Source of the DNA: Actinomycetes bacterium
Lineage (GTDB): Bacteria; Actinomycetota; Thermoleophilia; BMS3ABIN01
DNA: 56,348 nt
Reading direction: 5' to 3'
NCBI GenBank assembly: GCA_024275795.1
Contig: JAJRYJ010000064.1
Location: 1 to 56,348, forward strand
The notes beneath the pieces were generated by a model that had not been told where the DNA came from, ran no database searches, and saw only the letters and a program-made list of their open reading frames with translations. The position numbers were made by a program, and so were the translations under genes. This document shows, piece after piece, positions 9,882 through 50,265 of this stretch (positions are counted from its first letter, which is position 1; each line of letters starts with the position of its first letter).

Positions 9882-10089
9882 TGGTTCCTCCTGTCTGGGC
9901 TTGCCCACTGCTTGCCCACTATTTAACCCGATCAGCGCCTGGCCGTTTCGCGGCCCCCCTTTTTTCTATAAAATATATTCTCACATTTCGCGGTTGCATA
10001 CTATCAGCCCGCTGGCCGGCCTGCCGTAAAAGAGGGGTTCGGACGCGGCGGGGGAAATCATTAGCGACCGCCGTCCCAAGGGATAAAAG

Positions 10090-12245: not shown

Positions 12246-12964
12246 TGCCCATGAGCCGCCGGGGTTACTACGACTATTATTTTTCCAGCGAGGAGATCGA
12301 GGGCAGCGCTGCGCGTATCCGCGCCCTGAACGAGCTTGTCTACGGGCGGATCTCCCCCCACGTCATGCCCGGGTCGCCGGTGCTGGAGCTGGGGGTCGGC
12401 AAGGGGTTCTTCGCCTGGATCTGCCGCGACCACGGCCATGATTACCTCGGAGTCGAGGCCAATGGCGAGCAGTGCGCCCGGCTCAAGAAACAGGGGCTCG
12501 ACGTCATCTGCGCCCAGGTGCCGCCCCTGCCGCCGGAGCTCGAGGACGAATACGGTCTGATCTATGCCGCCCACCTGCTTGAACACCTGCCCGGCAGCCG
12601 CGCCGTGCATGAGCTACTGAGCCAGTGCCGTGACAGGCTCGCCGGCGGCGGCGCCGTCGCCATGCTCTTCCCGGACGCCGAATCCATGGGGTCCGACTTC
12701 TGGAACTGTGACTATACCCATACCTATGCCACTACCGGGCGCCGCATCGCCCAGGCCATGACCGACGCGGGGCTCAGGGTCGTTACAGTCCAGACGTTCA
12801 ACGGCCACTACCGCGGTGGCAGGCGCCTGCTGGCGCGGGCCGGTTCCAGCAGGCTGGTGCGCAGCGTCACGCAGGCGCTTGCCCGCGAACCGGCCAGGCG
12901 TGAACGATATTACCGCGGCTGGCTCTACCTGCAGAAAACCATCCTCGTCGTGGGGAAGCACTGA
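12245..12964 (+). CDS. Class I SAM-dependent methyltransferase
   Basis: VLELGVGKG motif I, GVE motif, HLLEHLP, DYTH. Confidence 0.85.
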   Translation: MPMSRRGYYDYYFSSEEIEGSAARIRALNELVYGRISPHVMPGSPVLELGVGKGFFAWICRDHGHDYLGVEANGEQCARLKKQGLDVICAQVPPLPPELEDEYGLIYAAHLLEHLPGSRAVHELLSQCRDRLAGGGAVAMLFPDAESMGSDFWNCDYTHTYATTGRRIAQAMTDAGLRVVTVQTFNGHYRGGRRLLARAGSSRLVRSVTQALAREPARRERYYRGWLYLQKTILVVGKH

Positions 12965-12972: not shown

Positions 12973-13992
12973 ATGGGAATGACCAAACCGCCCGTAAGCA
13001 TCGTTATCCCCGCCTACAACGCCCGGGAACACCTGTCCCGGGTGCTCGACGGAATCATTGAGCAGGACTATGACGGCCTCATCGATGTCGTCGTGGTCAA
13101 CGACGGCAGCAGCGACGACACGCTGCAGATGGCAGAGAACTACCGTGACAGCAAGCGACTGCCGGACAACCGCAGCCTGCGCGTCATCGATCAGCAGAAC
13201 CAGGGGGCGGCGGCGGCTACCAATACCGGCATCGAGGCCTCGAACCACGCGATAGTCTGCAGCGTCGACTCCGACGTGGTCTTGCATCGCGACTGGCTGG
13301 GAAAGATAATCGAGGAGATGCAGGACGAATCAGTCGCGGCGGCGCAGGGATATTACAAGACGCCTTCCGGCGTTTCATTCTGGGCGAGGATGATGGGTTA
13401 CGATGTCGAGGCCCGCTACGACGCCATCGACACCAGGTATGTGACACAGGTATGCACGGGCGACACCGCCTACCGCAGGTCCGCGCTGGAGAAAACAGGC
13501 TTGTTTGATACCAGCTTCAAATACGGCTACGACAACAACATGAGCTATCGGCTCCTGGCCGCCGGCTACAGGCTGGTCTTCAGGAAGGATGCCGTCTGTG
13601 ACCATTACTGGAAAGCTGACCTCATGAGCTACATCAGACAGCAGTACCGTTCAGGCATCGGCCGCCTGCAGCTGGTCGTCAGGCACAGCGAACATGTGAC
13701 CGGGGACAGCGTCTCGGGGATGCGGATGATGATGCAGGTACCGCTGACGTCCCTCTTCTTCATCTCGCTGTTCTTCAGTTTCGTGATCTACGGGTTCAAT
13801 CCACAGGGTCTCTACCTGCTGCTGGTGTCCGCCGTATCACTGGGGGCGCTGCTGCTCGACCGCACCGCCTTCGCCGTCGGGGTCTACCGCAAGCAGCGTG
13901 ACCCGTCGGTGGCGCTGATGCCCCTGGTACACCTTTTACGGAATGTCGTCTGGTGCTGGGCCCTCTTGCGCTGGGCGCTGGGGGCCCGGTGA
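12973..13992 (+). CDS. Glycosyltransferase family 2 with C-terminal TM helices
   Basis: SIVIPAYN, VVNDGSSDDT, DSD motif, RQQYRSG (QxxRW-like), hydrophobic C-terminus. Confidence 0.88.
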   Translation: MGMTKPPVSIVIPAYNAREHLSRVLDGIIEQDYDGLIDVVVVNDGSSDDTLQMAENYRDSKRLPDNRSLRVIDQQNQGAAAATNTGIEASNHAIVCSVDSDVVLHRDWLGKIIEEMQDESVAAAQGYYKTPSGVSFWARMMGYDVEARYDAIDTRYVTQVCTGDTAYRRSALEKTGLFDTSFKYGYDNNMSYRLLAAGYRLVFRKDAVCDHYWKADLMSYIRQQYRSGIGRLQLVVRHSEHVTGDSVSGMRMMMQVPLTSLFFISLFFSFVIYGFNPQGLYLLLVSAVSLGALLLDRTAFAVGVYRKQRDPSVALMPLVHLLRNVVWCWALLRWALGAR

Positions 13993-15494
13993 GCGGGTCC
14001 GCCGACAACCGCGGCGGCGCGCACCCAGTCGGGCCGCCCGGCCCGAAACGCGTCTGCCTGCTGGTGCCGCCGGCGCGTTCCGCTGACAAGGTCCCGGAGC
14101 GTGTCTACGGCTGCACCTTCACCTATTACCGCCAACCGGAGCTCCCCATGCTCTACGTAGCGTCGTTGCTGGAACAGGACGGCCATGCAGTCGAACTTAA
14201 GGACTACTCCGAAGACAGCTGGCAGGACTTCACCGGAGACCTAGCCTCATTCGACTACGACATCTATGTCCTGCATACGGTGCTGCTGGCCGAAAGCGTC
14301 GACCTGCGGGCGGCGCGTCAGATCCTTGAACATACGGAGGCCCACGTCATCTTCTTCGGCCCCCATCCCACCCTGAAGCCGCGCGACTTCCTGCCCTCGG
14401 AGCGCTGCGTCGTCGCCCGCGGCGAGGCCGAGTTCATCATCCGTGACCTGGTGCGGGCCCTGCCGGATGGCGATCTCAATACCATCAAGGGCATCTCCTG
14501 CCTGGACAACGGCGAGCTCATGGAGACCGAAAGCTACGGCGTCATCGACGACCTGGACTCCCTGCCCTTCCCCTCCAGGCACCTGCTCGACGAGGAACGG
14601 GACAGCTTCTACAATCCCAAGTTGCCGGATAAGCCCGTCACCCTGCTGCTCTCATCCCGCGGTTGCAGCTTCCGCTGTTACTATTGCGTGCCCAACTCCA
14701 TCAGCTGGGCGCGGGAGCTTGAGTGGAAGCGCTTCCACGACGGCAGGAAGCCGCCCGTAAAGCTGCGCTCGCCGGAGAACATCGCCAAGGAGTTCAGCGA
14801 ACTGAAACAGCAGGGATACCGTTCCGTCTCCATCATCGACGACATGTTCCTCTTCGGCGGCAAGAAGCGCATCATGGACATCAGCGAGCGCATCAGGGGA
14901 CTGGGGCTCAAGTTCGGCATCCTCGCCCGTTGCAACTTCGTCGCCGACGAGGAGCTGGTAAAAGCCCTGGCGGACGCCGGCTGCGTCTATGTCGACCTCG
15001 GCATCGAATCCATGGACCAGCGGGTGCTTGACGATATCCGAAAGGATACGGACGTCTCTGAGGTATACGAAGCCATCAGGGTGCTTTCGCGCTGCGGCGT
15101 CGAGCCCAAGGCGAACATCATGATCGGCTCCTCGTCGCTGGAAACCAGGGAAAGCATCGACAGGACCGTCAGCGAGATCTCGGACCTGCCGCTCAACTAC
15201 TGCATGTTCAGCATCGCCACCCCCTTCCCCGGCACCGAGTTCGCGGAGATGGCCGAGCAGGAAGGCTGGACTGTGAAACCAGAGATCTATGACCTTGAAA
15301 GCAACCTCTCCCCCACGGACAAGTCGCTGGTCTCCTATCCGGGGCTGTCCAGGGAGGAGATGGAGCAGGCGGTCAAACAGGCCAACCGCCGCTTCTACCT
15401 GCGTCCACGCCGCGCCTGGTTCTTCATCCGCCGGCTGACATCACTGAAGGCCCTCAGGGAACTGATATCCACAGGGTGGAAGGTGATTCGCTGA
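13989..15494 (+). CDS. Cobalamin-binding-domain radical SAM protein
   Basis: GPHPT and RGEAE in the B12-domain region, SRGCSFRCYYC (CxxxCxxC), LGIES, TPFPGTE; GTG 13989 overlaps the upstream TGA (GTGA). Confidence 0.9.
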   Translation: MSGSADNRGGAHPVGPPGPKRVCLLVPPARSADKVPERVYGCTFTYYRQPELPMLYVASLLEQDGHAVELKDYSEDSWQDFTGDLASFDYDIYVLHTVLLAESVDLRAARQILEHTEAHVIFFGPHPTLKPRDFLPSERCVVARGEAEFIIRDLVRALPDGDLNTIKGISCLDNGELMETESYGVIDDLDSLPFPSRHLLDEERDSFYNPKLPDKPVTLLLSSRGCSFRCYYCVPNSISWARELEWKRFHDGRKPPVKLRSPENIAKEFSELKQQGYRSVSIIDDMFLFGGKKRIMDISERIRGLGLKFGILARCNFVADEELVKALADAGCVYVDLGIESMDQRVLDDIRKDTDVSEVYEAIRVLSRCGVEPKANIMIGSSSLETRESIDRTVSEISDLPLNYCMFSIATPFPGTEFAEMAEQEGWTVKPEIYDLESNLSPTDKSLVSYPGLSREEMEQAVKQANRRFYLRPRRAWFFIRRLTSLKALRELISTGWKVIR

Positions 15495-15567: not shown

Positions 15568-18519
15568 CTATTGCGGGATGATGCCGTCTACCTCGTTGAA
15601 GGAACTGTTGTAGACCGTACGCTGGCTGGCAAGGATCGGCTGGCCGCCCGAGACCACCCGCACCGGCCCGTTCATCACCCCCGGGAAAGTAAGCGCCTGC
15701 ACGGTGCCGGCCGCCAGGCTCAGAGTCGGTCCCTGCTTGACGCCGCCGATGAATATCTCAGCCGTCGTATCAAGCGTCCCCTGGTTGCTCACCAGGATAT
15801 ATGTGGTCATTCCTCCCGAGAGCTGGTCGTACCAGGTGAACCAGGAGTCCGTTGAGAGGCTGCCGTGAGCGGCTCCCTGCAGCTCCTCGAAAGAGCTTCC
15901 CATCAGGGTGCGCTCGCTGACCACAAGCTGCTCGCCGCCGGTGGATCTGACTTTCACCGGCCCATCCCTCAGGCCCGGGAAGCTGACCGCCTCGACACCG
16001 CCCGCCGCCAGGCTCAGGGTCGGTCCCTGCTTGAAGCCGCCGATGAAGACCTCCGCGTCAACCGGCGCGGCGGTGGGGTTGGCAACCAGTATCCATGTCT
16101 GAAAACCCGGCGACAGCTGATCGTACCAGTTGAAGTCAAATTCATCGGAGAGCCCCGAAGCAGGCACGCCCATCACTTCGCTGAAATAACCGTTGAAGGT
16201 GACGCGCTGGCTCACCACCAGCGGCTGACCATTGGTGGACCGCACGTAGACCGGTCCGTCGATGATCCCCGGGAACTGGGGAGTTACCATCTCGCCGGGG
16301 TTAAGGCCGTAACTGCCTGCGGGCGTCCCCATGTCGCCGATGTAGACCTCGGCCGTAGTCGCCTGCGTCCCCTGGTTGCTCACCAGCATCCAGCTCTGCA
16401 TGCCCGGCGAATACTGGTCATACCAGGCCAGGTAGTATTCGGAATCCAGCTGCGACGCCGCCACGGCGGTCACTTCGGTGAAATTGCCGTTGAAGAGCAC
16501 CCGCTGGCTGGCCAGCAACAGCCCGCTTCCGGGCGAGAACACCTCCACCGGGCCCGCCATCACCCCGGGAAACTCCGGGGTCACCCTGCCCTGGGCGGCG
16601 ATCTGCCAGCCTCCCCGGTAGAAACCGCCGATCTCGACGCTGCCGATGTCCGCCTCGGTGGCGGACGGGTTACCTATCAGCACCCAGTTGCGCATGCCGG
16701 GAGAGAGCTGGTCGTACCAGGTGAAGTACTGGCTGACGGGAGAGGGCGGCGGCGCCCCCATGGCCAGCTTGCCGCTGCCGAAGAGGTTATCCTTGCCGGG
16801 GTCGCCCAGGTCGGTGGCGCCTGCCTCCAGCACGCTCATAAGCGTGGCCGATGAATACCCGGGGTATGCGCCCTTAAGCAGCGCCGCCGCTCCGGCCACG
16901 TGGGGAGTGGATGCCGACGTGCCGGCAAAGCCGCTGGGCCCGTATGTCCCAGTGGAGACACCGGTGGGCGCGGTGATATCCGGCTTGATCCTGCCGTCGG
17001 CCGTGGGCCCCCGGGAGCTGTAGGACGCCAGGCTGGTGCTGCCCACAGGCACCGCTCCCACCGTCATCACCGCCGCGTTATCCGCAGGCTGCCCCGCCAG
17101 GCTACCCGCGGCCACCTGGTATTCAAGGCTGTTGAAATATCCAAACAGCTCCAGGTCAGCATTGCCGTCGGCACCGGCGTTCCTCACGGAAATATAATAG
17201 GTGCCGCCCTGGCCGAAGGGCACCTTGTAATAGATTGCTTCCGCCGGTTCCTGTGAGCCGTTCTGCCAGTCCAGAGAAGACGCAACCGGTTCCGGGTTGC
17301 CGGCCTTGAACAGGTAGAGGTCATAGTCCTGGTCTGTCTGCGGCCACTTGTCCCAGGTCAGGTAAGCGTATATCTCAGACCCCACCGAAACAGTACCCTG
17401 GAAGTTGTTTCCCTCGTCGGCGCCGGAGAACTCGTGCCAGCTGTCGGAATCCGCGTCACTGAAGGCTCCACTCCAGTGATTGAGGGCACCGTTACCCGAG
17501 GCATTTACCCAGAGGATGCCCGCCGTGGTCGCCGTATCGGCAATGTCGTTGACCGTGCCGGAACCGTCACCACGGAAGGCGTATGGCCAGGCCCACGATG
17601 CGGATATCACGTCCACGCCCTGGCTGATGAGATAGGAGACGGCATTGCCCAGCTCGACCTCCGTCTCGAAGTTCACCAGGTAGAGCTGGGCCTCCGGCGC
17701 CATGTCGTAGACGACCTCGGCGCAAGCCGTGCCGTGGTCGGTGGTGTTATTGATATCACCATCCGCGCGGAAAGAGGCAGTTATCACGTTTGCGGGCAGT
17801 TCGCCGCCTTCGATGCGCAGGCCGTAACCGCTGAAGCCCAGGTCGAGTACGGCGACCTTCGTCCCCGCCCCCTTGTGAAGTGCCGCCTGCCAGATATCGG
17901 CTGAAACATCTGCCACACCCTCACTCGTATAAGCGCTGACCAGCGGTGTGCGGGGCTCCCTCACGTAGGAAACAGCCGATGCCGCCGCCAGCTCTTCAAG
18001 ACTTTCGATGGGTACGGAAGCCTGCAGCAGGCTCCGGTAACTTGACTCGACGACGCCGTCCGCAGCCAGCACCAGCGCTGCGGCATCGACCAGCGGTTCG
18101 CCTGCGCCCCCTGCCGCCTCGATGACGACGCGGACCCTGCCGTCCTCCAGGTCCATCCCCCGCAAGCGGGCGAAATCTTCCATCTGCGCCCGCGATCCGG
18201 ATTCAGCCAACAGGGCCAGCTGGGCCAGGGACGACTGGAGGTCGCTGTCCTTGACGGTCAAGGACTGGAGCTTGCCGAAGTCTTCATCACCGAAAGGTGT
18301 GGTCTGCTCCTCTGCTACTCCCGGGGCGGCAGCTGTGGCTGCTGTTTCCGGGGTCTCATCGGCTGGCGCAACCTTTATCGCTCCCAACACTGGATCGTCG
18401 ACTGCATCAGCCGGTGAACCGCCCGCCCGGCCACTGAAGAAAAGGATGCCCGCGAGCACAGCGGCGATTATCAGCAACAACGCCGCAAATCCCGTTTTTC
18501 TCCCTGTTTTTATACTCAT
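15568..18519 (-). CDS. Secreted subtilase (peptidase S8) with four C-terminal FxWYD repeats
   Basis: N-terminal signal/TM, propeptide, triad VAVLDLG / DHGTAC / GTSASTPHVAG, SSRGPTADGRIKPD, inserted PPC-like DYDLYL domain; repeat module at ~15571-16730. Confidence 0.9.
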   Translation of the reverse strand: MSIKTGRKTGFAALLLIIAAVLAGILFFSGRAGGSPADAVDDPVLGAIKVAPADETPETAATAAAPGVAEEQTTPFGDEDFGKLQSLTVKDSDLQSSLAQLALLAESGSRAQMEDFARLRGMDLEDGRVRVVIEAAGGAGEPLVDAAALVLAADGVVESSYRSLLQASVPIESLEELAAASAVSYVREPRTPLVSAYTSEGVADVSADIWQAALHKGAGTKVAVLDLGFSGYGLRIEGGELPANVITASFRADGDINNTTDHGTACAEVVYDMAPEAQLYLVNFETEVELGNAVSYLISQGVDVISASWAWPYAFRGDGSGTVNDIADTATTAGILWVNASGNGALNHWSGAFSDADSDSWHEFSGADEGNNFQGTVSVGSEIYAYLTWDKWPQTDQDYDLYLFKAGNPEPVASSLDWQNGSQEPAEAIYYKVPFGQGGTYYISVRNAGADGNADLELFGYFNSLEYQVAAGSLAGQPADNAAVMTVGAVPVGSTSLASYSSRGPTADGRIKPDITAPTGVSTGTYGPSGFAGTSASTPHVAGAAALLKGAYPGYSSATLMSVLEAGATDLGDPGKDNLFGSGKLAMGAPPPSPVSQYFTWYDQLSPGMRNWVLIGNPSATEADIGSVEIGGFYRGGWQIAAQGRVTPEFPGVMAGPVEVFSPGSGLLLASQRVLFNGNFTEVTAVAASQLDSEYYLAWYDQYSPGMQSWMLVSNQGTQATTAEVYIGDMGTPAGSYGLNPGEMVTPQFPGIIDGPVYVRSTNGQPLVVSQRVTFNGYFSEVMGVPASGLSDEFDFNWYDQLSPGFQTWILVANPTAAPVDAEVFIGGFKQGPTLSLAAGGVEAVSFPGLRDGPVKVRSTGGEQLVVSERTLMGSSFEELQGAAHGSLSTDSWFTWYDQLSGGMTTYILVSNQGTLDTTAEIFIGGVKQGPTLSLAAGTVQALTFPGVMNGPVRVVSGGQPILASQRTVYNSSFNEVDGIIPQ
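15571..16730 (-). repeat. Four tandem ~97-aa protein repeats (FxWYD...W.L..N...GPV.V...SQR...F.E)
   Basis: Units begin YFTWYDQ, YLAWYDQ, FNWYDQ and WFTWYDQ in the translated protein. Confidence 0.9.
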
Positions 18520-18602
18520 CCGCAATCAATCCCTCAATATCCATCATCTCACATCATCCATTATAGATATCGGCAGCGTCATTTGCCTGAAGCTCACATT
18601 TA

Positions 18603-18670
18603 CGGCAGCCGCCGGCGCTTCCTATCTGTTGATGGACTGCGGTATGATTTGACCGCGCCGGCGGCTGCCG
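18603..18670. repeat. Perfect 16-bp inverted repeat enclosing a 36-bp promoter-like spacer
   Basis: CGGCAGCCGCCGGCGC (18603-18618) and GCGCCGGCGGCTGCCG (18655-18670); the spacer holds TATGAT at 18643-18648. Confidence 0.85.
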
Positions 18671-18680
18671 GCTCCTGCAA

Positions 18681-19937
18681 ATGAACTCCACATCCACGAC
18701 AAACCTGGAGAAGGCTTCGGTCGGGTGCATCCTCGTCAACTACAGGACGCCCTGGGAGATGCTCTGCCGCTGTCTCGATTCCATCGTCGCCCGGAACGAC
18801 TCGGTGGACTGCTCCATTACCCTGCTGGATAACGCCTCGGGCGACGAGACGCCCGCGAAGCTCAGGGAAGCCTATCCCCAGGTGAACCTGATCGAGATGC
18901 GCAGCAACACCGGCTTCGCCGCGGCCGTCAACCGGGGGCTCCGGGAGGTCAGCGAACCCTTCGTGTTGATGCTGAACACGGACGCCGTGCTGACGGACGG
19001 CGCACTTGAGACCATGGCAAAGACCCTCGCCCAGGCGCCCGCCACTTGTGCCGGCGTAGCGCCCAAGATGCTGCTTTCCAGCTCCATGGAGGGCATCATC
19101 GATGCTGTCGGTACGGTGATGCCTGCCGACGGGGCCGCCTTCAGCCGGGGAATCGGCCAGTGTGACCTGGGCCAGTATGATGCGGTGGAATCGGTGTCCG
19201 GCGTCTGTTTCGGAGCCGCCCTGCTCAGGCGCCCCCTGCTGGATCCGGATGCGATCGGGCCGCTCTACGAGGGATATTTCCTCTACTTCGAAGACACGGA
19301 CTGGTGCATGCGCGCCGCGAGCCAGGGATACGGCTTCCTCACGGTACCAGAAGCCGTCGTCTACCACGAACATTCGGGCGTTGCCCGCAAGCAGTCGCTC
19401 GAGTTCAAGTACCGCATGATCGAACTGAATACGCTGAAGATAGTCACGCGCACCTTCGAGAGCACAAGGGGAGCTGCCCGCGTAGTGTCGGCGCGGCTGG
19501 CGCGGCTGGCGGCACGCACCCTGATGCGCCGCCGTAACGTGCGCGCCAACCTGCTGATCCTGGCGTCTTACCTGTCGTCCCTGCCGTCGCTGCTCGCTGA
19601 GCGCCGGGAACTGGCGGCCCGCAGGACCGTTTCCGACGCGGAGGTTTTAGCACTCGCCGCCGGGGAGAACGCCTGGTTCGATAGCATCAGTTACAGGCCC
19701 GACCGCTGCCTGGACTCGCTCATCGACAGTTACGACAGGCTGCAGCGGCAACAGGGAGGACAGCGCTGCCTGGAGATGCTGTCCCTGCTCAAATGGCTGA
19801 AGCTCGAGCAGTCGGCGGGTCAATCGCCGCCGCTCAGCCGGGAACAGCTCAAGCTGCTTGCGGGGGAGCCGCCTTGTGTTTCCGGCCTGCTGCGGCTGGC
19901 GGGCATCGGCGTCACTGCTGTGGATACTTCTCCATGA
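18681..19937 (+). CDS. Glycosyltransferase family 2 (WbbL/rhamnosyltransferase-like)
   Basis: LVNY, DNASGD, NTGFAAAVNRG, LNTD, YFLYFEDTDWCMRA...G, VYH. Confidence 0.88.
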   Translation: MNSTSTTNLEKASVGCILVNYRTPWEMLCRCLDSIVARNDSVDCSITLLDNASGDETPAKLREAYPQVNLIEMRSNTGFAAAVNRGLREVSEPFVLMLNTDAVLTDGALETMAKTLAQAPATCAGVAPKMLLSSSMEGIIDAVGTVMPADGAAFSRGIGQCDLGQYDAVESVSGVCFGAALLRRPLLDPDAIGPLYEGYFLYFEDTDWCMRAASQGYGFLTVPEAVVYHEHSGVARKQSLEFKYRMIELNTLKIVTRTFESTRGAARVVSARLARLAARTLMRRRNVRANLLILASYLSSLPSLLAERRELAARRTVSDAEVLALAAGENAWFDSISYRPDRCLDSLIDSYDRLQRQQGGQRCLEMLSLLKWLKLEQSAGQSPPLSREQLKLLAGEPPCVSGLLRLAGIGVTAVDTSP

Positions 19938-21216
19938 CGGTCCGCCGGTATTCCCCGATCACCCGCCGCCAGGAGTAGTTCTCTTCCACCCAGCGCCGCG
20001 ATTCCTCCAGGGCTTTTGCCTGCGCTTCACCCCGCTGGTTCAGGCTGAGGATGCGGGAAAGACCCTCGATAAAACTGTCCTCGTCATCGTACCCGAGCAC
20101 GGTCTCAACCTCATCAGCGTAGTAACGCAGGATGGGGCTGGCGCTGTTTACCAGCGCCGGTCGTCCCTGCGCCAGGGCCTCGACCACGACGAGGGACAGG
20201 CTCTCGAGAGAAGACGGGTTGACCACACAGGCGGCGCCGGCGATCAGGTCGTCCCTGCGCTCATCCGGCAGGTAGCCCAGGTATTCAAGCCAGGAGCGCT
20301 CCGGAAGCACGAAGTCATCGTCCAGCCGCCCCGCAAGCAGCAGCCGCATGTCTCCGGAGTCCGCCTGCCGGCGGAATGCCTCGAAATGACCTATCAACCG
20401 GTCAACCTGCTTGCCGGCGCTGACGCGGCCCAGGTAGAGCACATAGGGCCGCTCCATCGACTCACCCGCATCGGACATCCGCCTGCGGGCACGGTCCGGG
20501 GAGCCTCCGGCGCGCCTCTCGCTGTCGACACCCTCTACGCCGGCGCCGGCGACGCTCACCTTGTGTTCCGGCACACCCCTCGACAGCAACAGTTCCCGCT
20601 CCGGGTCGCTGTTGGCGAGGATATGGCCCGCGCGCTCCAGCAACCGCTGCACGGTCAGAAAATGGAACGGCCGCTCGTCGTGGGCTGCGGGCACAAGGAC
20701 GCAATCGTCGCCGACAATCTCGACAGCGCTGATGGTGGGCAGGTACAGGTAGGTGAAGCAGATGAAACGGTCATAGATGAGCCGGTGCTCCTTGATATAG
20801 CGGGATAGCTCCGGGTTTACCGGCCCCTGCAGCGTGAACCAGAGACGCTCCAGCCTGAGCAACAGGGAGCCTGGAAGACGCAGCCGCTGCAATGCGAGCA
20901 ACAGGGAAGCCAGGGGGCCGTCGACGCGGGGGAAGAAGCGCGAACGCCCCCGCCGCGAGTCGAAGCGCAGTATCCTTGCGCCGCTCTCTTCGGACCATCC
21001 AGTATGGTAATGGTTGGCCCAGGTCTGGTAATCCCGCGCCGTGGTGGTGAGCACGTCCACTTCCCAGCCCAGGTCCGAGACCAGCCGCCCGGCCACCTGC
21101 CGCGCCAGGGTCTCGGCGCCGCCGATGACCTCCTCCCCATATCTCTGCACCACGACGGCGATTTTCAACGGCGGCCCTCCGCCCTCGACTTCTTCCCCAG
21201 CGCTGATCGGCTTCAC
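19912..21216 (-). CDS. Glycosyltransferase family 4
   Basis: VQRYGEEVIGGAE, YLGRVSAGKQ, ESLSLVVVEALAQG; start GTG 21216 (GTGA overlap) or TTG 21168. Confidence 0.88.
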   Translation of the reverse strand: MKPISAGEEVEGGGPPLKIAVVVQRYGEEVIGGAETLARQVAGRLVSDLGWEVDVLTTTARDYQTWANHYHTGWSEESGARILRFDSRRGRSRFFPRVDGPLASLLLALQRLRLPGSLLLRLERLWFTLQGPVNPELSRYIKEHRLIYDRFICFTYLYLPTISAVEIVGDDCVLVPAAHDERPFHFLTVQRLLERAGHILANSDPERELLLSRGVPEHKVSVAGAGVEGVDSERRAGGSPDRARRRMSDAGESMERPYVLYLGRVSAGKQVDRLIGHFEAFRRQADSGDMRLLLAGRLDDDFVLPERSWLEYLGYLPDERRDDLIAGAACVVNPSSLESLSLVVVEALAQGRPALVNSASPILRYYADEVETVLGYDDEDSFIEGLSRILSLNQRGEAQAKALEESRRWVEENYSWRRVIGEYRRTVMEKYPQQ

Positions 21217-23126
21217 CCCCTGCAATCGAAAGACTTGATGCGGTAGAGTGTCGCACCCTTGTCATAAATCTTCTCGAAGTACCTGCTGGTGTCCAGCATC
21301 TCCCGCTGCATGTGGTTGAAATAGACAGGCCGGGAGCCGAAATAGACATAGCCGATGCCATAGTCGCAGTAGAGGGAGCGGATCGCCTGCTCGTCCTCCC
21401 TGTTCCTTGCCACGGCCATGTAGAGGTCGAAGATCTCCGCTGAACGCTGGGTCGAGAACTCCAGGAACGATACCTCCACCTGCTTATCCGTGAAGGAGGG
21501 AATCCAGACGCCCCCGTCGGCCCCGGCGATGACGGCGAGGACATCGCTGGGACTGCCAAGCTGAATCAGTATCAGCGCGTCGTCCGGCAATTCGTTCTCG
21601 ATGTAGTCGAAAGCATCCAGGTCGTCCTGGTTCACCGTCCAGAGCTCCCTGGCGGCCTTGTCATATCTGTGGTACTGATCCAGCCCGACATGGAAGAACG
21701 CCGTCGTCAGCGCCGCGATGACCACGGCGGCGGTCAGTACCTGCAAAGGCAGCCTCAGGAGTGTCCGGCTCAGCAGGTAATATGCGAACCAGGCGACGGT
21801 GACGGCGATGATTATGGGCAGGAAGTGTTTCAGTTCCGCCATGTAGAAAACACCGTAAGTGCTCTCGGGGAGCATCAGGAGCCCGAAGCCGACCAAATAA
21901 AGGACCACATAAGAACCAAACAGGCGCAGCGGCACCTTCCTGTTGGCATCCGGCAGCACCAGCAGGGCGGCCAGGGAGACCGCCAGGGCCGCCATGGGCC
22001 ATTTGCCCAGCACGTCGATACCGTTCCCGACAAACTCCTCGGAGGCATACCTGACGGTCCCATACTCCGCAATGAAGGGGTCGGGCATGTTTACGGCACG
22101 AACATCATCGACCGGGCGGCCCAGGTACTTCGGCACAACCTGTATCAGCAGGAGGGCGCCGAAAACTCCCAGTACCGCCAGGGACATCGCATAGGCACCC
22201 AGCTTCTCGCGCCCGACGGCGAGTTTGCCCCCCCTTATTCTGACCATGTCCACCAGGTTCACGAAAAAGAGGATGAATACCAGTAGAAAACCGGTCGGAT
22301 AGTGGATGATCACCGTTGCGAACACCAGTGCGGCTGTGATGATGTAATCAAGCCTGTTCCTGGCGCTGGTGGAGAGATGGATAATCAGAGGCGTGACGGA
22401 AAAGACCATCACCATGGAATTCTTGCCGGCGATATAGAAGAAATCCGTCGGCCGCGGCAGCATGGCCGCGATCACGAACATAAGGAAGCCGTAGATCATC
22501 CAGCGGTCACCGGGGCGGTCCTTCCCCGCCCGGAAGGAGAGTACGCCCAGGTAGAACATGCTTACGGGGAACAGGGCCATGTGCGCGTTCAGGCTCGTAA
22601 GCACCACCTGGGGGTACGAGACATCCAGGAATGTGGCGTAATAGTTCAGGAAGTACTCCAGCCCCTGGGGATACCACTGCTGACTGGTGGTGAAATGATT
22701 GACGTTGATGTACTTGAGCCACTCGCTGTGAGCGATGGGGTCGTGCAGGATGGGTGTCAACAGGTCATGTGTGGGCAGAACCCTGAAGACGAACAACATC
22801 ACGAACAGCGCGTAGGCCACGATCCTGGCCCAGCCGATCCTCAGGGCATAGTGCCGCAATCCCCTGAAATATCGCCCCATCAGGAAGATGCAGGCGGCTG
22901 CGGCGGCGCTTGCGTTGAACACGAGCGTCGCCGGTCCCTGGGGGATGCCCAGCACCTCTTCGATAAAGGACATGAGCACCAGCACCAGGGGTGAGAGCAG
23001 CACGGACAGGATCAGCTTGTCGATCAGCCCGACCCTGTCACTGTCGCGGGTGAAGTAGAAGACGATGGCCAGCGCCGGCAGCAGATTCACCAGCACGAAC
23101 ACCATCACGAACTGGGCTATGGTCAT
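21213..23126 (-). CDS. Polytopic membrane protein, probable GT-C glycosyltransferase (DUF6541-like)
   Basis: About a dozen TM segments, early extracellular loop HDPIAH...YPQG, soluble C-terminal domain DGGVWIP...YGIGYVYFG. Family call from recalled motif pattern only. Confidence 0.6.
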   Translation of the reverse strand: MTIAQFVMVFVLVNLLPALAIVFYFTRDSDRVGLIDKLILSVLLSPLVLVLMSFIEEVLGIPQGPATLVFNASAAAAACIFLMGRYFRGLRHYALRIGWARIVAYALFVMLFVFRVLPTHDLLTPILHDPIAHSEWLKYINVNHFTTSQQWYPQGLEYFLNYYATFLDVSYPQVVLTSLNAHMALFPVSMFYLGVLSFRAGKDRPGDRWMIYGFLMFVIAAMLPRPTDFFYIAGKNSMVMVFSVTPLIIHLSTSARNRLDYIITAALVFATVIIHYPTGFLLVFILFFVNLVDMVRIRGGKLAVGREKLGAYAMSLAVLGVFGALLLIQVVPKYLGRPVDDVRAVNMPDPFIAEYGTVRYASEEFVGNGIDVLGKWPMAALAVSLAALLVLPDANRKVPLRLFGSYVVLYLVGFGLLMLPESTYGVFYMAELKHFLPIIIAVTVAWFAYYLLSRTLLRLPLQVLTAAVVIAALTTAFFHVGLDQYHRYDKAARELWTVNQDDLDAFDYIENELPDDALILIQLGSPSDVLAVIAGADGGVWIPSFTDKQVEVSFLEFSTQRSAEIFDLYMAVARNREDEQAIRSLYCDYGIGYVYFGSRPVYFNHMQREMLDTSRYFEKIYDKGATLYRIKSFDCRG

Positions 23127-23286
23127 CTCGCTTTCCTGTAGATTGGCCGGGAATGCTTCATCAGGGGGAACCTAAGCTGCGCACCCGGAGTGCCGATTCA
23201 TATGATGGAATGATAAACAGGTATCATCCCTGCAATTGTATGCGCTGATAGTGTGGCGCGCAAAGGGCATGAAGGGATTCCCGACG

Positions 23287-26200
23287 ATGGTGACCGCCGA
23301 GAAGAAAAACCCCATGGCAGCGATTATCGCATCATTTGCCGTCATCCTCTCTGTTTTCTTTTTCGCGTTGTTCAACCCTCTTTCCACCGCAACGGCGGCC
23401 CAGTGCGATTTCACGGTGACCAATACCAACGACAGCGGCGCCGGCTCGCTCCGGGACGCCATCGCCGAGGCCAACTGGGCTTCCGGCACGCCGACGGTAT
23501 GTTTCGCCATCGATAGCGGTCCCCAGACGATCATTCCCACCTCGCCCCTGCCCCCGGTCACAGGGTCGATGGTGATAGACGGCACCACTCAGCCCGGATT
23601 CACCGGTACGCCGCTGATACAGATCAACGGGGCCGGGGCCGGACAGACTCCCGGTATCTGGATCACCGCCGGCAACAGTACGGTCAAGGGGCTGGTAATC
23701 AACGGTTTCGCCTCAAACGGCATCTTCATCAGCGATAACCCCGGCAACGTGATCACCGGCAACTATATAGGCACCAACGCGGACGGGACGGCAGCCGTTC
23801 CCAACGGAACCGACGGCGTCGGCATCTACCACTCTTCCGGCCATACCATCGGCGGCACTTCCGCGTCTGAACGCAATCTGATATCCGGCAACACCGGTAA
23901 CGGCATCGGCATCACAGGCGCTGATGCCAGCGGTAACATCGTCCAGGGCAACTATATCGGCACCAACGCCTCCGGCACCGGCGCCATAGCCAACGGCGGC
24001 GACGGCATCCTGCTCAACGATGCCCCGGAAAATATCATTGGCGGAACCACGGGCGTGACCCCGGGCGGCGCCTGCACCGGCGCCTGCAACCTGGTCTCCG
24101 GCAACGGCTACAACGGCATCGGCCTCTGGTACGCCAACGCCGCCGGCAACCAGGTGCTGGGCAACTATGTGGGCATCAACGCGGCGGGAACGGCCGCCCT
24201 GGCCAATTTCAACATCGGCATCGAGCTCAACGAGTCGCCCAACAACACGGTTGGCGGCACCACGGCTGAGGCCAGGAACGTCATGTCCGGCAACGGCGGC
24301 GCCGGCCTGCTGCTCACCGGCAGTGCCTGCACCGGCAACGTCATCGCCGGCAACTTCATCGGCACCAACGCCGCGGGCACCGGCGGCGTCGGCAATCAGA
24401 AGATGGGAATCAGCATCGGCTGGTCCCCCGGCATCTACAGCGCCAACAACAACCTTATCGGCGGCGCCACCGGCGTCACTCCGGGGGGCGCCTGTACCGG
24501 CTCCTGCAACCTCATATCCGGGAACCACGATGACGGCGTCTTCATCACCGACAACGGCGGCGGCGGCGCCAACCAGCTGAAGGGCAACTTCATCGGCACG
24601 GACGCCTCCGGCAACGGCTCCATCGGCAACGGCGCCAACGGCGTCGGCATCCTCGACGTTGCCAACAACCAGATCGGCGGCTCCAGCGAAGCGGAACGCA
24701 ATATTATCTCCGCCAACGGGGACAACGGGGTCATCATCGCCGGCTGGTCGTCCACCGGTAACCGCATCGAGGGGAACTATATCGGACGCACCAGCAACGG
24801 CGGCAACATGGGCAATACGCGCTTCGGAATCACCGTTGCTTCCGGTACCGATACGGCTATCCTCGGCAACGGCATCTATGCCAACGGGCAGCACGGCATC
24901 GACCTGGGCTATGACTACGTGACCGCCAACGACGCCAATGACTGGGACGGCGGCGCCAACAGGCAGCAGAACTTTCCGGTCGTGACATCGGCGACGACCA
25001 CCGGCGCGGCCACGACGATCACGGCTTCGCTCAACAGCACACCCGGCACCAGCTTCCGCATCGATTTCTTCGCCTGCCCCGGCTGCAACGCCGGACCCCC
25101 CAACGACTATGGGGAAGGACAGACATTCCTCGGAAGCACAACGGTGACAACCGATGTCTTCGGCAACGTGGGCTTCGGCTATGTCAGCTCCATACCGGTT
25201 CCCGGCGGCCAGTACGTAACAGCCACCGCCACCAGGATGATCGGGGAGATGCCGGCGGAGACCTCCGAGTTCTCCCAGTGCAGACAGGCGACAGGCACGG
25301 CGGACACGGCACCGCCCAGTGTCTCCATACCGGCGCCTACCGGCGGCTCGCTGGTGAGCGGCACGGTGGATTTCGCGGCCGACGCCGACGACAACACGGG
25401 CATCGCCGTGGTGGAGCTGTTCATCGACGACAATCCGGTCGCAACGGTCAGCGAACACCCCTATTCCTGGCAGTGGGACACCACCAGCTCTTCCCAGGGA
25501 GACCATGTGCTGAAGGCTGTGGCAACGGACCTTGCGGGACTGACAGCCCAGGCGACCCGCACCGTCACCGTGGACAACTTCACCTCCACCTCCAATTACT
25601 ATTTCACCTGGTACGACCAGTCCAGCGGTGACTGGCGCGACTGGGTGCTGCTGGCCAACCCCGCTACGGCCGCAGGCGGTGCCCGTACGTCCGTCAAGGT
25701 CGGCGCCACCACCTATGCCGACAGGGATATGGCCGCCGGAGACCCGGCGGAGACGCCGTCGTTCCCGGGGGTGATCGGCGGACCGGTCACGGTCTCCGCG
25801 GACGCGCCGCTGATCACCAGCCAGCGGGTGCTCTACAAGGACAGCTTCAACGAGATTACCGCCATACCGGAGAACGAACTGGAGCATGAGTATTACTTCA
25901 CCTGGTACGACCTGGTCTCGCCGAGCATGAAGGGAAACTGGATCCTGGTGAGCAACCAGGAAGCGGTGCCGGCGGACGTGGAGATCTACATCGGCGGCAG
26001 CCTGCGCGGCAGCTATACGATACCTGCGGGCGGCCGCATCACCCCTGACTTCCCCGGGGTCATGGGCGGACCGGTCAAGATCACCTGCCCCACATGCGCG
26101 GCAGGCCACAAACTGCAGGCCAGCCAGCGGGTGCTGTTCAACGACTCCTTCAACGAGGTGGCGGCCGTCCCCGAATCCGGCCTGAGCAGCGAATATCTCT

Positions 26201-26772
26201 TTACCTGGTATGACTGCGTCAGCGGCAACGGCATGAACGGCAACTGGATACTGATCAGCAACCAGGATACGGGCGACGCGGCCGTGGATATCTATATCGA
26301 CGGAAGCCTCCGGGGCAGTTACAGCATCCCCGAGGGCGGTATCATCACTCCCCAGTTCTCCGGCGTAATCGGCGGGCCGGTGCGGGTGGTCTCCAGCAAC
26401 GGCAAGCAGCTGCTGGTGAGCCAGCGCATCATCTATAAGAACAGTTTCGAGGAAGTCCAGGGGTTGACCGCCGCCGACGCCGGCACGGACCTCTGGTTCA
26501 CCTGGTACGATTCCAAACCGGAGAACTCGATGAACGGCAACTGGATACTGGTTTGCAACCGCGGCGACAGCCCGGCCGACGTCGGGGTCTACATCGACGG
26601 CTCGCTCCAGGAACAGGTCACCCTGGGCGTGGGCGAGAACAGGCCCCTCTCCTATGCGGACACCATGGGCGGGCCGGTGCGGGTGGTCTCCACCAACGGC
26701 CAGCCGCTGCTGGCGACCCAGCGGGTGCTCTTCAAAGACAGTTTCAACGAGGTTGCGGGAATCAGCTACTGA
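23287..26772 (+). CDS. Large secreted beta-helix surface protein with Ig-like domain and four C-terminal FxWYD repeats
   Basis: Signal/TM, VTNTNDSGAGSLRDAI cap, many GNYIGTNA.G / NLISGN right-handed beta-helix repeats, ETSEFS, DTAPPSVSI...VTVDN Ig domain, then the repeat module. Start could be 23269, 23287 or 23314. Confidence 0.85.
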   Translation: MVTAEKKNPMAAIIASFAVILSVFFFALFNPLSTATAAQCDFTVTNTNDSGAGSLRDAIAEANWASGTPTVCFAIDSGPQTIIPTSPLPPVTGSMVIDGTTQPGFTGTPLIQINGAGAGQTPGIWITAGNSTVKGLVINGFASNGIFISDNPGNVITGNYIGTNADGTAAVPNGTDGVGIYHSSGHTIGGTSASERNLISGNTGNGIGITGADASGNIVQGNYIGTNASGTGAIANGGDGILLNDAPENIIGGTTGVTPGGACTGACNLVSGNGYNGIGLWYANAAGNQVLGNYVGINAAGTAALANFNIGIELNESPNNTVGGTTAEARNVMSGNGGAGLLLTGSACTGNVIAGNFIGTNAAGTGGVGNQKMGISIGWSPGIYSANNNLIGGATGVTPGGACTGSCNLISGNHDDGVFITDNGGGGANQLKGNFIGTDASGNGSIGNGANGVGILDVANNQIGGSSEAERNIISANGDNGVIIAGWSSTGNRIEGNYIGRTSNGGNMGNTRFGITVASGTDTAILGNGIYANGQHGIDLGYDYVTANDANDWDGGANRQQNFPVVTSATTTGAATTITASLNSTPGTSFRIDFFACPGCNAGPPNDYGEGQTFLGSTTVTTDVFGNVGFGYVSSIPVPGGQYVTATATRMIGEMPAETSEFSQCRQATGTADTAPPSVSIPAPTGGSLVSGTVDFAADADDNTGIAVVELFIDDNPVATVSEHPYSWQWDTTSSSQGDHVLKAVATDLAGLTAQATRTVTVDNFTSTSNYYFTWYDQSSGDWRDWVLLANPATAAGGARTSVKVGATTYADRDMAAGDPAETPSFPGVIGGPVTVSADAPLITSQRVLYKDSFNEITAIPENELEHEYYFTWYDLVSPSMKGNWILVSNQEAVPADVEIYIGGSLRGSYTIPAGGRITPDFPGVMGGPVKITCPTCAAGHKLQASQRVLFNDSFNEVAAVPESGLSSEYLFTWYDCVSGNGMNGNWILISNQDTGDAAVDIYIDGSLRGSYSIPEGGIITPQFSGVIGGPVRVVSSNGKQLLVSQRIIYKNSFEEVQGLTAADAGTDLWFTWYDSKPENSMNGNWILVCNRGDSPADVGVYIDGSLQEQVTLGVGENRPLSYADTMGGPVRVVSTNGQPLLATQRVLFKDSFNEVAGISY
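25594..26769 (+). repeat. Four tandem ~98-aa FxWYD protein repeats, homologous to those of the subtilase
   Basis: Units begin YYFTWYDQ, YYFTWYDL, YLFTWYDC and LWFTWYDS; each ends SQR/TQR.....SF.E. Confidence 0.9.
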
Positions 26773-29700
26773 CCCGGACTTCGCTCCAGGGTCGCACGAG
26801 CGCCGCTGATGCTTTCGAAAAAGTCCATCATCTGCTGCATCACCCTGTCCCAGGTGTACTCGGCGGCGGTCCTGTAGCCCTCCGCCCTCAGCCTCTCCTG
26901 GAGCTCCTTGTCGGCAAAAAGCCTCTCGAGCGCCTGTTTCAGGCCCTGCGGGTCCTCCTGCCCGACCATCAGGCAGTTGCGTTCGTGTTCGCAGAAGTCG
27001 GCGTTGCCGTGGGCATCGGTGCAGATGACCGGCGCGCCGGCGGCCATCGCCTCCAGCACCGGCAGGCAGAAACCCTCGTGGCGGGAGGTCTGCACGAAGA
27101 CGGTTGCCCGGTTATAGAGTTCGTTGACTTCCTCGTCCGACGGCCGCAGGAAGTACTCCGCCCCCTCCAGGCCCTCCGCCAGCGCCGGCTCGATACCGAA
27201 CATCCACAACCTCGGCCGCGACTCGCCCATTGCCTTCCAGCCGTCGATGGTCATGGGCAGATTCTTCAGATAGTGGCTGCGTCCCAGCGTGAGCAGCACA
27301 TCCTCTTCGCGCTCCACTTCCAGGGGTCTGAAGATGTTCTCGTCGATGCCGCAGCCGACCATTGCCGGCGTCACGCCCATCTCCTCCAGCTGGCGGCCGT
27401 TCCAGTGCGACTCGGTGATGTAGTTGAACTCCTTGCGATACCGGGAGAGGACCACGCTCTGCATATAGGGGTCATCCCGGTAATATGAGGTCTCGATATC
27501 CTGCACGTAATAAACGGGGATGCCGCGGCTTACTGAAGCCAGCCACACCGGCACCGCTGTTTCCCACCAGGTGGCCACCTTGACGGCGTCCTCCCGCTTC
27601 AGGGCATCGACCAGCTCGGAATAATCAGCGAACTCGCGTACCGGCGCATCCAGAGGAAACCAGTCCGGAGGGCCCTCAAGCGCATAGAGTTCGGCGTTCA
27701 CCCCCATGGCCTGCAGCCGGTTCAGGTGCTCGAACACCAGCCTGTGGCCGCCACCCACGCCCGTGGACTGGAGCACGTAGATGACATGCAGCCGCCCCTG
27801 TTCATCCATGACGTCACGCCGGTCGAACCAGTCGCCCCATTTATCCCAGAAATAATTGAGCGAGCTCATCTCCCGCTCCCCCTGCTGCTTTGTGCGGGTA
27901 GCTGATTCGTGATGGTATAACACGGCCGGCGGATAGTAGAAACACTTGTACCCGGCCTCCCAGGCCCTCAGGCAGTAATCCATGTCCTCGAAGGCCATGC
28001 GGAAGCCCTCGTCCAGGAAACCGATCTCATCGATCACGCTGCGCTTGACGTACATGCAGGCGCCGGTGACACCGAGGACATAATTGGGGATATTGGCCGG
28101 CGGGAAATCCGACGGCTGGAAACGGTAATAGTGGTCGAACCACTGCGGCGCCCCGGGGTTGCGGCAGGTTCCGGCAAACTGGATCCTCCCGTCGGGATAC
28201 AGCAGTTTGGCGCCGACGATGCCGATTTCCTCTTCCGAGCAGGCGCCGTACTGAAGCGCCTGCAGCCAGCCGGGCTCCGCCGTGGTGTCGCTGTTGAGGA
28301 TGACCACATCTCCCTGCGCGGCGGCCCTGAGGCCCCGGTTGACGGTCCTGGCGAAGCCGCCGTTCTCCTCGCTGTAGATGACTCTGACGCCGCCGCCTTC
28401 CACTGACCGCAGGAAATCCAGGTGCGCCTGGTCGCTGCTGGCGTCATCCACCACTATCACGCTGGCCATGCCCGGCTCCACGGTCTTCTCGATGCTCCTC
28501 AGGCAGGGCGCCAGCACCTGATGGTCGTTGTAACTGGGTATGATGATCGTCACCGGCCGCTTGTGGTCGCGATACCAGCGTCTGATCTCGCCCTGTTCGC
28601 GGGCCGGCGTCCGGATGCGCGATGAGATCGATGCCGGCAGGCGGCTGGAGACGTAGCCGGCAGCCTTGCGCGCGAACTCCCGCGGACCCTCGTTGCGGAT
28701 GACCGAGGCCGAGCGCCAGAGGCCGCGCATTGGCCTGGTGGCGGCCCAGCTCTTTGAGGCGTAGACGCGCTCCAGCTCTGCAGTGCGTTCCCTGAGTTCC
28801 CGGTCCTTGTGGCCCAGCATCCGCTGACGCCGCTCCACCTCGCGCTTCAGGTTCTCCACGTCCTGCGCCAGCTGCGCGATCATACCGTCCTTCCTGTGCC
28901 CCTCGACTGCCAGCTGCTCGATGCGCCGCCGCTCGGCGGCGATGATCTCGGCGATCACCGCCTGGCTCTTCCTCACTATCTCGAGGTAGAGCTCCGCATC
29001 GATGCCGCCCGCCTCGAGCTCAAGGTCTCTCAACGCAGCTTCCTTCTTGATGAAATAGACGTGGCGGTATGATTCCTGTTCATGGTCGTAAGGGAAGACG
29101 CGGCTGTTGTAGAAAGCATTGAAGTCGCGGAAGCGCTCGATGGCCTCGCCGAAGATGAAATTGGCGAAGATCATGTTCTCCCAGAGCCAGATGCTGTTAT
29201 TGGGAATCACCTGGAAGCTGTAGCCGGCCTCATGGATGAACGCCTCCAGCTCATCGCCGTCCGGCAGGCCGTGCTCGATATGCTCCTTGAGCCAGGCGTG
29301 GTCCTCGCCGCCGGAGATGATCCTGTAGGTCTCGTTGGCATAGCGCTCAGCCGCGGCCGTGGCCCGGGAAGCAAACGGGGCCGCCAGGATGACGGCCTTG
29401 AGCGCGACCCGCAGGTTCTCGTCCAGGTATCGCCTGCGGTCCTCCGGGGGGATATGCTCGTAGACGTCAGCCGATACCACGAAGTCGAATTCCCCGTCTT
29501 CGAGCGGCATCTCGCGTCCGTCGCCCCTGATGAAGTTGGCGTCTTCATCCGAGTCGACCGCGTCCGGGTCGGGGTCGAGATAGAAGACTTCGTCCTCAGG
29601 CAGGAACTTGCGCAGCAGGTTCCCCCGGCCGCCTACGTCGAGCACGCGGAAGCTTTTCCCCTCCTCGCCGCGATTGGCGCCGATTATGTCCCTGATCAGA

Positions 29701-46364: not shown

Positions 46365-46372
<8 letters not shown>
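44840..46372 (+). CDS. PAS-domain sensor histidine kinase (NtrB/AtoS family)
   Basis: Four N-terminal TM segments (YYLPIFYAAFRFGLRGG), PAS, AGVAHEVRNPL, NLITNAIQAM, FDPFYTT, GSGLGL. Confidence 0.93.
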
Positions 46373-47717
<1,345 letters not shown>

Positions 47718-50034: not shown

Positions 50035-50084
50035 CCGGCGGCCGCGGGGGCGTCTGCACGGGTCGCCGACTCCTCCCATGCAGA

Positions 50085-50255: not shown

Positions 50256-50265
50256 ACATACAGAG

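Follow-up and report, generated by a model that had tools for sequence, protein, structure and literature searches.

A fourfold C-terminal FxWYD module of an uncultured actinobacterial family as a probable expanded variant of secreted ASRAH tetrads

Why do two secreted proteins with unrelated passengers, encoded in one glycan locus, both end in four copies of the same repeat, and what might these repeats do there? The proteins, a subtilase and a beta-helix protein, are encoded in a 56,348-nucleotide stretch of DNA (hereafter the window) of contig JAJRYJ010000064.1 from an Actinomycetes bacterium (GenBank assembly GCA_024275795.1). An earlier note on this DNA had proposed that the repeats, named here after their FxWYD motif, form an apparently uncharacterised cell-surface anchor that binds the polymer made by the surrounding locus. 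Our verdict is that the module is a greatly expanded variant of the secreted ASRAH tetrads described computationally in 2009. Its most likely ligand is a carbohydrate of the producer's own envelope, through which it would retain secreted proteins on the cell surface, a reading that we consider probable, though well short of certain.

The repeat module in the window, its genome and its family

The two carrier genes and their repeats, with lengths and positions in amino acids (aa), are:

15568-18525, minus strand: secreted subtilase gene (Peptidase_S8, Pfam E 1.7e-28; 985 aa, signal-peptide-like N-terminus)
15571-16737, minus strand: C-terminal tetrad of the S8 protein, four FxWYD (ASRAH-like) repeats
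16444-16737, 16147-16443, 15853-16146 and 15571-15852, minus strand: the S8 repeats, aa 597-694, 695-793, 794-891 and 892-985
23236-26772, plus strand: secreted beta-helix + Big_7 gene (1178 aa from TTG)
25591-26769, plus strand: C-terminal tetrad of the beta-helix protein, four repeats; the sequence used for the structure model
25591-25884, 25885-26187, 26188-26484 and 26485-26769, plus strand: the repeats of the beta-helix protein, aa 786-883, 884-984, 985-1083 and 1084-1178

As the earlier note had described, each protein carries four terminal repeats. They are 94-101 aa long (~98 aa), the pairwise identity among the eight is 32-54%, and the last residue of both proteins is the end of the fourth repeat (a tail of 0). 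Pfam families found in the two proteins at E ≤ 1 are only S8, Big_7, Big_13, Beta_helix, NosD and DUF1425; in the beta-helix protein Big_7 scores E 2.4e-15, and the Beta_helix and NosD matches are weak. The database copy of this protein (P0003) has 1167 aa, which implies a probable start at ATG 23269. No Pfam-A or NCBIfam model matches the repeats of either protein at E ≤ 1, and neither protein contains an LPXTG motif, an SLH domain or a C-terminal transmembrane segment, so the absence of these anchors stands; nor is the module CWB2.

We searched the 16,183 six-frame open reading frames (ORFs) of the genome (G000; 1.91 Mb, 123 contigs) with a hidden Markov model of the eight window repeats. 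It matched 21 ORFs at E ≤ 9.2e-15, namely the two window genes and 19 further ones (e.g., C3 at 8.2e-140), which places the module far beyond chance. Three positions (G62, P63 and R82) do not vary among the 67 repeats found in this genome, W7, Y8, D9, W19, N24, V64, S80 and E91 are conserved in at least 90%, and the consensus first proposed for the repeat proved essentially right. Fourteen carriers are complete, each with four repeats; in 13 the module stops no more than 3 aa short of the C-terminus, and in one a 42-aa tail follows. The rest of the 21 ORFs are one tetrad interrupted by a TAG codon, one gene cut by a contig end, one degraded remnant and four contig-end fragments. In the interrupted gene (C52; L010:33-2864, minus strand), a PD40-propeller carrier, a single in-frame TAG lies inside the first repeat; pseudogenisation, a sequencing error or read-through could account for it.

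A signal-peptide-like N-terminus was seen in 16 of the 18 genome ORFs examined, the exceptions being the remnant and the contig-cut gene; every intact carrier examined has such an N-terminus. The passengers in this genome comprise CAP with Big_7, GH26 with Big_7, Big_13 arrays, PD40 propellers, M4 thermolysin, LVIVD, M23, glucosaminidase, BNR/sortilin-like and purple-acid-phosphatase-N/fn3 domains, in agreement with the proposal of a fixed-number terminal module on unrelated secreted passengers. Other anchors are few in this genome: two LGFP proteins and some six small LPXTG-type proteins, with two sortases; SLH (PF00395) is absent from it.

A profile of the 67 repeats, run against 1.84 billion cluster representatives (50% identity), retrieved 1604 proteins at E ≤ 0.001, of which 699 reached E ≤ 1e-30. 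In the 261 homologs fetched for analysis, a score-biased sample that favours many repeats, 250 have four repeats, nine have eight (two tetrads) and two, N-truncated, have seven. The predicted C-terminal position is the rule rather than a law: the module ends within 5 aa of the C-terminus in 228 of the 261, and in 20 it is internal or N-terminal, right after the signal peptide. Tails of 6-30 aa occur in 13 homologs, and in at least 10 of these a 21-22-aa tail resembles the first strands of a fifth repeat, a hint that a repeat's first strands may pack against the domain before it. A subfamily with such tails (motif EYWFPWYD..ILVG.P) comprises P0046, P0060, P0079, P0081, P0112, P0116, P0121, P0243 and P0261.

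An N-terminal hydrophobic segment is present in 214 of 259 homologs; the remaining 45 start within domains of extracellular type and seem to be N-truncated. Passengers overall include S8, M4, M23, M6, C14, CHAP, Amidase_2, SpoIID, glucosaminidase, GH26, GH17, CAP, PD40, BNR, LVIVD and NosD, and a Pfam search of 41 further carriers found extracellular passengers only, with no model on the module. Some proteins are made almost only of one or two tetrads (P0125, P0057, P0169), and two module-only proteins, P0169 and P0245 (429 and 444 aa), have a lipobox-like LxxGC signal. P0124, from a metagenome contig, combines an M23 peptidase, a PEP-CTERM motif and two tetrads. P0169, P0245 and P0124 indicate that the module is used beyond the C-terminal passenger format, possibly also outside monoderm bacteria.

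The homologs and genome records come from sources labelled 'MAG: Thermoleophilia / Gaiellales / Actinomycetes / Actinobacteria bacterium'. Within the window's family the repeat was found in 20 of 23 other genomes; one genus lacks it (0/3) and three species have a single divergent carrier. Most genomes of the family have 33-116 repeat matches, with 116 in a 2.4-Mb genome, and there are 10-29 carriers per ~2-Mb genome. The class was also sampled outside this family, in 17 genomes, and none of them matched. Across the phylum, five of 401 sampled genomes (249 genera; 12 candidates scored per genome) matched, including G000 and one from another family with three carriers. A scan for relatives by single protein gave module matches in metagenome-assembled genomes only and no ortholog of the beta-helix protein. 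Tetrads are inherited as units: of 1000 repeats compared by hmmalign identities, 934 have their nearest counterpart from another protein at the same position.

Fold and superfamily of the tetrad

An AlphaFold2 model of the 393-aa tetrad, built from a 61-row alignment, reached a mean pLDDT of 97.1 and a pTM of 0.92. The model is all-beta, with 7-8 strands per repeat. The pTM makes the relative placement of the four repeats confident, which points to a single rigid body rather than beads on a string. Among 48,161 PDB chains, the best match was Thermotoga maritima TM1070 (1nc7_A; Z 11.6, root-mean-square deviation 2.9), aligned over 96 of 116 residues on repeat 4, followed by the sensory rhodopsin transducer of Anabaena (ASRT; 2ii7_A) at Z 8.3 and the next, unrelated row at Z 7.3; CBM32, CBM6/35 and CBM62 sandwiches scored Z 5-6. 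Foldseek, given the whole four-domain model, returned only multi-domain alignments with TM of ~0.1.

Profile comparison with hhalign supplied a second route. The FxWYD repeat aligns with DUF5719 (95%, E 3.9e-8, 95 columns), two other DUF5719 units align in register with it more weakly, and DUF5719 in turn aligns with the ASRT family PF07100 (95%, E 3.6e-8). Control comparisons, made with reversed profiles or with a beta domain from the same proteomes that is unrelated, gave E 0.12-0.81, and the distant kinship to DUF5719 suspected from the window is thereby upheld. Against this genome, the DUF5719 model itself scores best at 12.7-14.3 bits, inside FxWYD repeats, and does not reach its gathering threshold of 26.2 bits.

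TM1070 and ASRT are the structures on which the ASRAH superfamily was defined (De Souza, Iyer & Aravind 2009, Biol Direct 4:25, PMC2739507). According to that paper, TM1070 forms tetramers, the dimer interface supplies part of the wall of its deep cleft, and the fold signature is a Trp, after a polar residue, that starts strand 1, together with a near-invariant Asn that ends strand 2. In the FxWYD repeats T6-W7 and N24 are conserved in at least 90%, and in the model the Asn follows strand 15-22; W7 and N24 fit the signature. The paper also describes extracellular ASRAH domains as dyads or tetrads with predicted sugar or peptidoglycan binding, including secreted tetrads on amidases (PMC2739507). 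We conclude, from the predicted structure and the profile links, that the FxWYD module is probably an ASRAH-superfamily tetrad. As an anchor, it is therefore not wholly uncharacterised: retention by wall or glycan binding would still be the best reading, and the TM1070 match leads to a published precedent for the module.

DUF5719 was found in 62 of 151 genomes of the phylum, about one copy each, and in 0/3 of the window's family; six unpublished genomes (G057, G178, G123, G041, G152 and G085) enter this tally by count only, not by sequence. In 5/6 genomes (two of them inferred from coordinates) a 1040-1240-aa GT2 glycosyltransferase lies directly upstream of it; Zincin_1 is nearby in 2/6 and phosphomannomutase in 3/6. 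The 2009 paper, in its part on an actinomycete ASRAH family, links that family to WhiB, a glycosyltransferase and an inactive zincin and proposes that it binds the product of the glycosyltransferase (PMC2739507). By context and hhalign, DUF5719 is this lipoprotein family. We found no literature on DUF5719, on FTWYD repeats or on wall-binding repeats in Thermoleophilia. Four genomes (G097, G124, G137 and G163; families f30 and f35) have 85-194 first-look DUF5719 candidates, with up to five scored matches, and may hold other lineage-specific expansions of ASRAH-like sandwiches.

Function of the tetrad and its alternatives

The mechanism that we favour begins with four ASRAH beta-sandwich domains that, fused in one chain, would form one rigid unit, a counterpart within a single chain to the homotetramer of the stand-alone relatives, in which the four repeats would correspond to the four TM1070 subunits. 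The number four, or twice four, would then follow because the tetrad is a single-chain tetramer. The module would be exported with its passenger via a Sec signal peptide, its ligand would be peptidoglycan or a conserved wall glycan, and binding would keep enzymes as well as binding proteins at the cell surface of a monoderm actinobacterium. It is possible that the ligand is peptidoglycan itself or a conserved part of the TagA-dependent polymer.

Several observations point indirectly to retention on the cell's own wall. Besides the range of unrelated secreted passengers and the scarcity of other anchors in the genome, peptidoglycan enzymes (Amidase_2, SpoIID, M23, glucosaminidase and CHAP) carry the module in one or two copies. 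In genome G015 the ortholog of the CAP carrier (70% identity) has seven LGFP repeats in place of the tetrad. In the syntenic locus of genome G011, a single 1236-aa protein has the order Amidase_2-FxWYDx4-SpoIID, and its counterparts in the window are a separate Amidase_2 protein (53% identity) and an LGFPx8-SpoIID protein (69% over the SpoIID part). The 1246-aa carrier of G011 had also been considered as an M4 protease; this was rejected on its Amidase_2-tetrad-SpoIID architecture. The replacement by LGFP repeats in orthologs and the coupling of DUF5719 to the giant GT2 argue in the same direction.

Other results weigh against this picture. Direct comparison of FxWYD with PF07100 is not significant (E 0.036, probability 1.4%), although N24 aligns there with the invariant Asn of ASRT, so that superfamily membership rests on the structure and the transitive link. 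A profile search of PDB sequences returned nothing significant, only designed Ig domains at E 0.01. The contig-cut carrier C20 has only two repeats after an fn3 domain. Repeats are 45% identical within one protein and 41% identical at the same position across proteins (hmmalign), which speaks against deep position-specific specialisation, though these values also fit co-evolving pseudo-symmetric interfaces. The anchoring role of LGFP repeats is itself only proposed, and the GH26 and GH17 passengers could equally use a substrate-targeting lectin. Our search of the literature on ASRAH found only the computational 2009 paper and no binding experiment on an extracellular ASRAH domain.

A second C-terminal domain bears on the same question. 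It is ~115 aa long, has no Pfam match and shows the motif YWxSxADYQ..ELS.., ending Y.YPGPYPG. Examples are:

L073:1-375, minus strand: second C-terminal domain, this genome
L074:1069-1443, plus strand: second C-terminal domain, this genome
L070:3547-3921, plus strand: second C-terminal domain, relative
L072:3541-3915, plus strand: second C-terminal domain, relative

In module-poor genomes, the orthologs of the window S8 protein (52-55% identity) and of the GH26 carrier end in this domain. It occurs in 15/15 genomes of the family, with 10-40 matches each, and in 0/9 genomes of other families. In this genome 25 ORFs contain it once each, within 3 aa of the C-terminus in 21, and never together with an FxWYD tetrad (0/25); one of its carriers has an LPSTG signal after the domain. 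Its passengers are as diverse as those of the tetrad. It was modelled (pLDDT 92.5) as an Ig-like sandwich of a generic kind. The fold search did not identify it, as the best match (ApaG, Z 9.1) heads a flat list of Ig-like sandwiches, and kinship to FxWYD, DUF5719 or ASRT was rejected (hhalign E 0.27-0.6). That the exoproteome uses two interchangeable C-terminal domains strengthens the reading of the C-terminus as a localisation slot. A bolder extension, to which we attach low probability, is a two-tag surface display: nearly all large exoproteins would end in an ASRAH tetrad or the ~115-aa Ig-like domain, and the tags, exclusive and swapped between orthologs, would deliver them to two envelope ligands or layers. 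The tetrad would then be an exported wall-glycan clamp derived from a cytoplasmic tetrameric sugar sensor, its four clefts binding a conserved TagA-dependent polymer.

The genes around the two window carriers bear on the choice of ligand. As claimed, the carriers lie among glycosyltransferases (GT4, GT2, TagA/WecG), with a methyltransferase, next to Wzt and Wzm. The locus runs in the order below, with the S8 carrier after the radical SAM gene and the beta-helix carrier after the 12-transmembrane-segment protein:

6132-7241, plus strand: GT4 glycosyltransferase, conserved start of the family's wall-glycan locus
7241-7975, plus strand: WecG/TagA-family transferase, conserved start of the family's wall-glycan locus
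8049-8705, minus strand: IS200-like (Y1_Tnp) transposase, between TagA and the epimerase
8910-9908, minus strand: epimerase/dehydratase
10511-11548, plus strand: LPG_synthase_TM protein
12245-12964, plus strand: methyltransferase
12973-13992, plus strand: GT2
13953-15494, plus strand: B12-binding radical SAM
18681-19937, plus strand: GT2, between the two carriers
19912-21225, minus strand: GT4, between the two carriers
21213-23126, minus strand: 637-aa protein with ~12 transmembrane segments and no Pfam match, between the two carriers
26766-29789, minus strand: 1007-aa methyltransferase-GT2-GT4 fusion
29790-31715 (ORF), minus strand: Wzt (ABC_tran + Wzt_C), true start probably internal
31019-31813, minus strand: Wzm (ABC2_membrane)
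31927-34290, minus strand: LGFPx8-SpoIID protein
34294-35451, minus strand: Amidase_2 protein
35670-36785, plus strand: GT4 closing the conserved locus, then PolX as in G011

The G011 locus is syntenic with this one (GT4-TagA-epimerase-LPG_synthase_TM-GT2-methyltransferase ... Wzt ... GT4-PolX). Its ends, GT4-TagA ... Wzt ... GT4-PolX, are kept between genera and its middle differs, so that the middle looks like a serotype-like variable region. At the place of the window's IS200-like transposase, G011 has an unannotated ORF, and its locus also holds a WsaF-type rhamnosyltransferase (L095:13344-14663, minus strand) and a PMT_2 protein.

The earlier note had the tetrad bind a secondary wall polymer made by this very wzm/wzt locus. 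SLH domains offer a parallel, in that they bind a pyruvylated polymer made by neighbouring genes. In favour of this version are the two carriers in a ~31-kb locus where chance would place 0.32 (post hoc Poisson P(≥2) = 0.04), the syntenic core in G011, inside which the Amidase_2-FxWYD-SpoIID carrier also lies, the position of DUF5719 directly downstream of the giant GT2, and the published proposal that the DUF5719-like family binds a glycosyltransferase product (PMC2739507). The genes specific to the locus, however, do not co-occur with the module: full-length orthologs of the 1007-aa fusion are missing from module-rich relatives, with its best partial matches coming from the module-poor G020, G010, G022 and G015, and the 12-transmembrane-segment protein is found only in G000, G003, G005 and G014, of which two have the module and two lack it. 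TagA is present in 15/15 family genomes, module or not. The placement of the module inside its glycan locus holds for the two window carriers, but these are only two of ~20 in the genome; most lie elsewhere, and the flanks of the 11 other carrier loci are housekeeping genes except at C4, where a UDP-GlcNAc 2-epimerase and a DUF2334-GT2 are nearby. Binding of the polymer made here is thus not supported, and we regard it as unlikely. Much the same low probability goes to a general lectin or carbohydrate-binding module that would target passengers to external glycans (plant, algal or microbial) or to the walls of other cells. A fold that belongs to predicted sugar binders, the CBM sandwiches among the structural matches and the frequent GH26, GH17 and beta-helix/NosD passengers would suit it, but proteases, CAP, propellers and the cell's own peptidoglycan-remodelling enzymes (Amidase_2, SpoIID, M23, glucosaminidase) are carriers too, the tetrad is interchangeable with LGFP repeats in orthologs, and P0169 and P0245 are lipoproteins made of the module only.

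Two further explanations were weighed. A surface lattice built by tetrads from different proteins would make the module a self-assembling, S-layer-like or scaffold unit; the oligomerisation of the stand-alone relatives into tetramers, the proteins made almost only of tetrads (P0125, P0057, P0169) and the abundance of the module per genome are compatible with this, but a fused tetrad, to judge from the pTM, should satisfy its tetramer interfaces within the chain, and we think a lattice very improbable. Least credible of all, in our judgement, is a role in export, sorting or folding, as an address tag for some dedicated machinery or as an intramolecular chaperone, with no wall ligand. The extreme C-terminal position of the module in most homologs would suit this, and the second, mutually exclusive class of C-terminal domain in the same genomes recalls two-tag systems, but at ~390 aa the module is far above the size of known sorting tags, it also occurs in N-terminal or internal positions, and no conserved partner gene was seen beside carriers at the 11 other loci. 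Retention on the cell's own envelope thus remains the reading that we prefer.

Two other features of the window lie downstream of the locus. At 43461-47717, a sigma-54 factor with all three RpoN domains, a PAS histidine kinase and a sigma-54-dependent response regulator stand in a row; sigma-54 is unusual in Actinomycetota. The GC content of positions 50000-56348 is 0.51-0.55, against 0.59-0.67 elsewhere; this part, which holds a weak Terminase_5 match (50666-51667) and a PMT_2 glycosyltransferase (51997-53769), may be foreign DNA.

Significance and comparison with known systems

With this assignment, a large domain family without a Pfam or NCBIfam model (1604 clusters at 50% identity) would gain a name and a fold, its fixed number of four would be explained through descent from a tetramer-forming fold, and DUF5719, a widespread actinobacterial family, would be tied to the ASRAH superfamily. 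If wall binding is true, the tetrad would be the main surface-retention device of an uncultured subsurface and hot-spring actinobacterial lineage, and functional data on extracellular ASRAH domains would exist for the first time, together with a glycan-binding scaffold that is compact and very confidently modelled. For the question of how surface proteins come to change anchors, the swaps between orthologs and the parallel second C-terminal domain amount to a natural experiment.

The module shares the logic of SLH, CWB2 and LGFP, which serve monoderm and other bacteria as non-covalent wall anchors (for LGFP only a proposed role): a fixed or tandem repeat module stands at one end of many unrelated secreted proteins of one genome. 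It has no sequence relationship to them (no Pfam match at E ≤ 1), and its fold is different.

Among the closest described systems are the ASRAH tetrads of secreted N-acetylmuramoyl-L-alanine amidases from Roseiflexus, Chloroflexus and Herpetosiphon (family 2 of PMC2739507), with which FxWYD shares repeats of ~99 aa, four in a row, and secretion without transmembrane segments; Amidase_2-linked forms also occur in the FxWYD family. Family 2 is described as 'always fused to an amidase', whereas the FxWYD tetrad is found on more than 15 kinds of passenger, mostly at their C-terminus, and the window carriers are S8 and beta-helix/Big_7 proteins. Compared with family 2 by description, the tetrad is also set apart by its 10-29 carriers per genome in one uncultured actinobacterial family.

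DUF5719 (PF18986) and the FxWYD carriers are both secreted actinobacterial proteins with several such sandwiches, related by remote homology. DUF5719 proteins have their own N- and C-terminal extensions, no passengers and about one copy per genome, whereas the FxWYD module sits on many passengers. With TM1070 (1NC7) and ASRT (2II7; PF07100) the module shares the beta-sandwich, the conserved Trp at strand 1 and the Asn after strand 2. In the strand that carries their ligand signature, SHEshChhN, FxWYD has W19 and L21. Their fourfold assembly is that of cytoplasmic single-domain homotetramers, whereas in FxWYD the four domains are fused in one chain and secreted.

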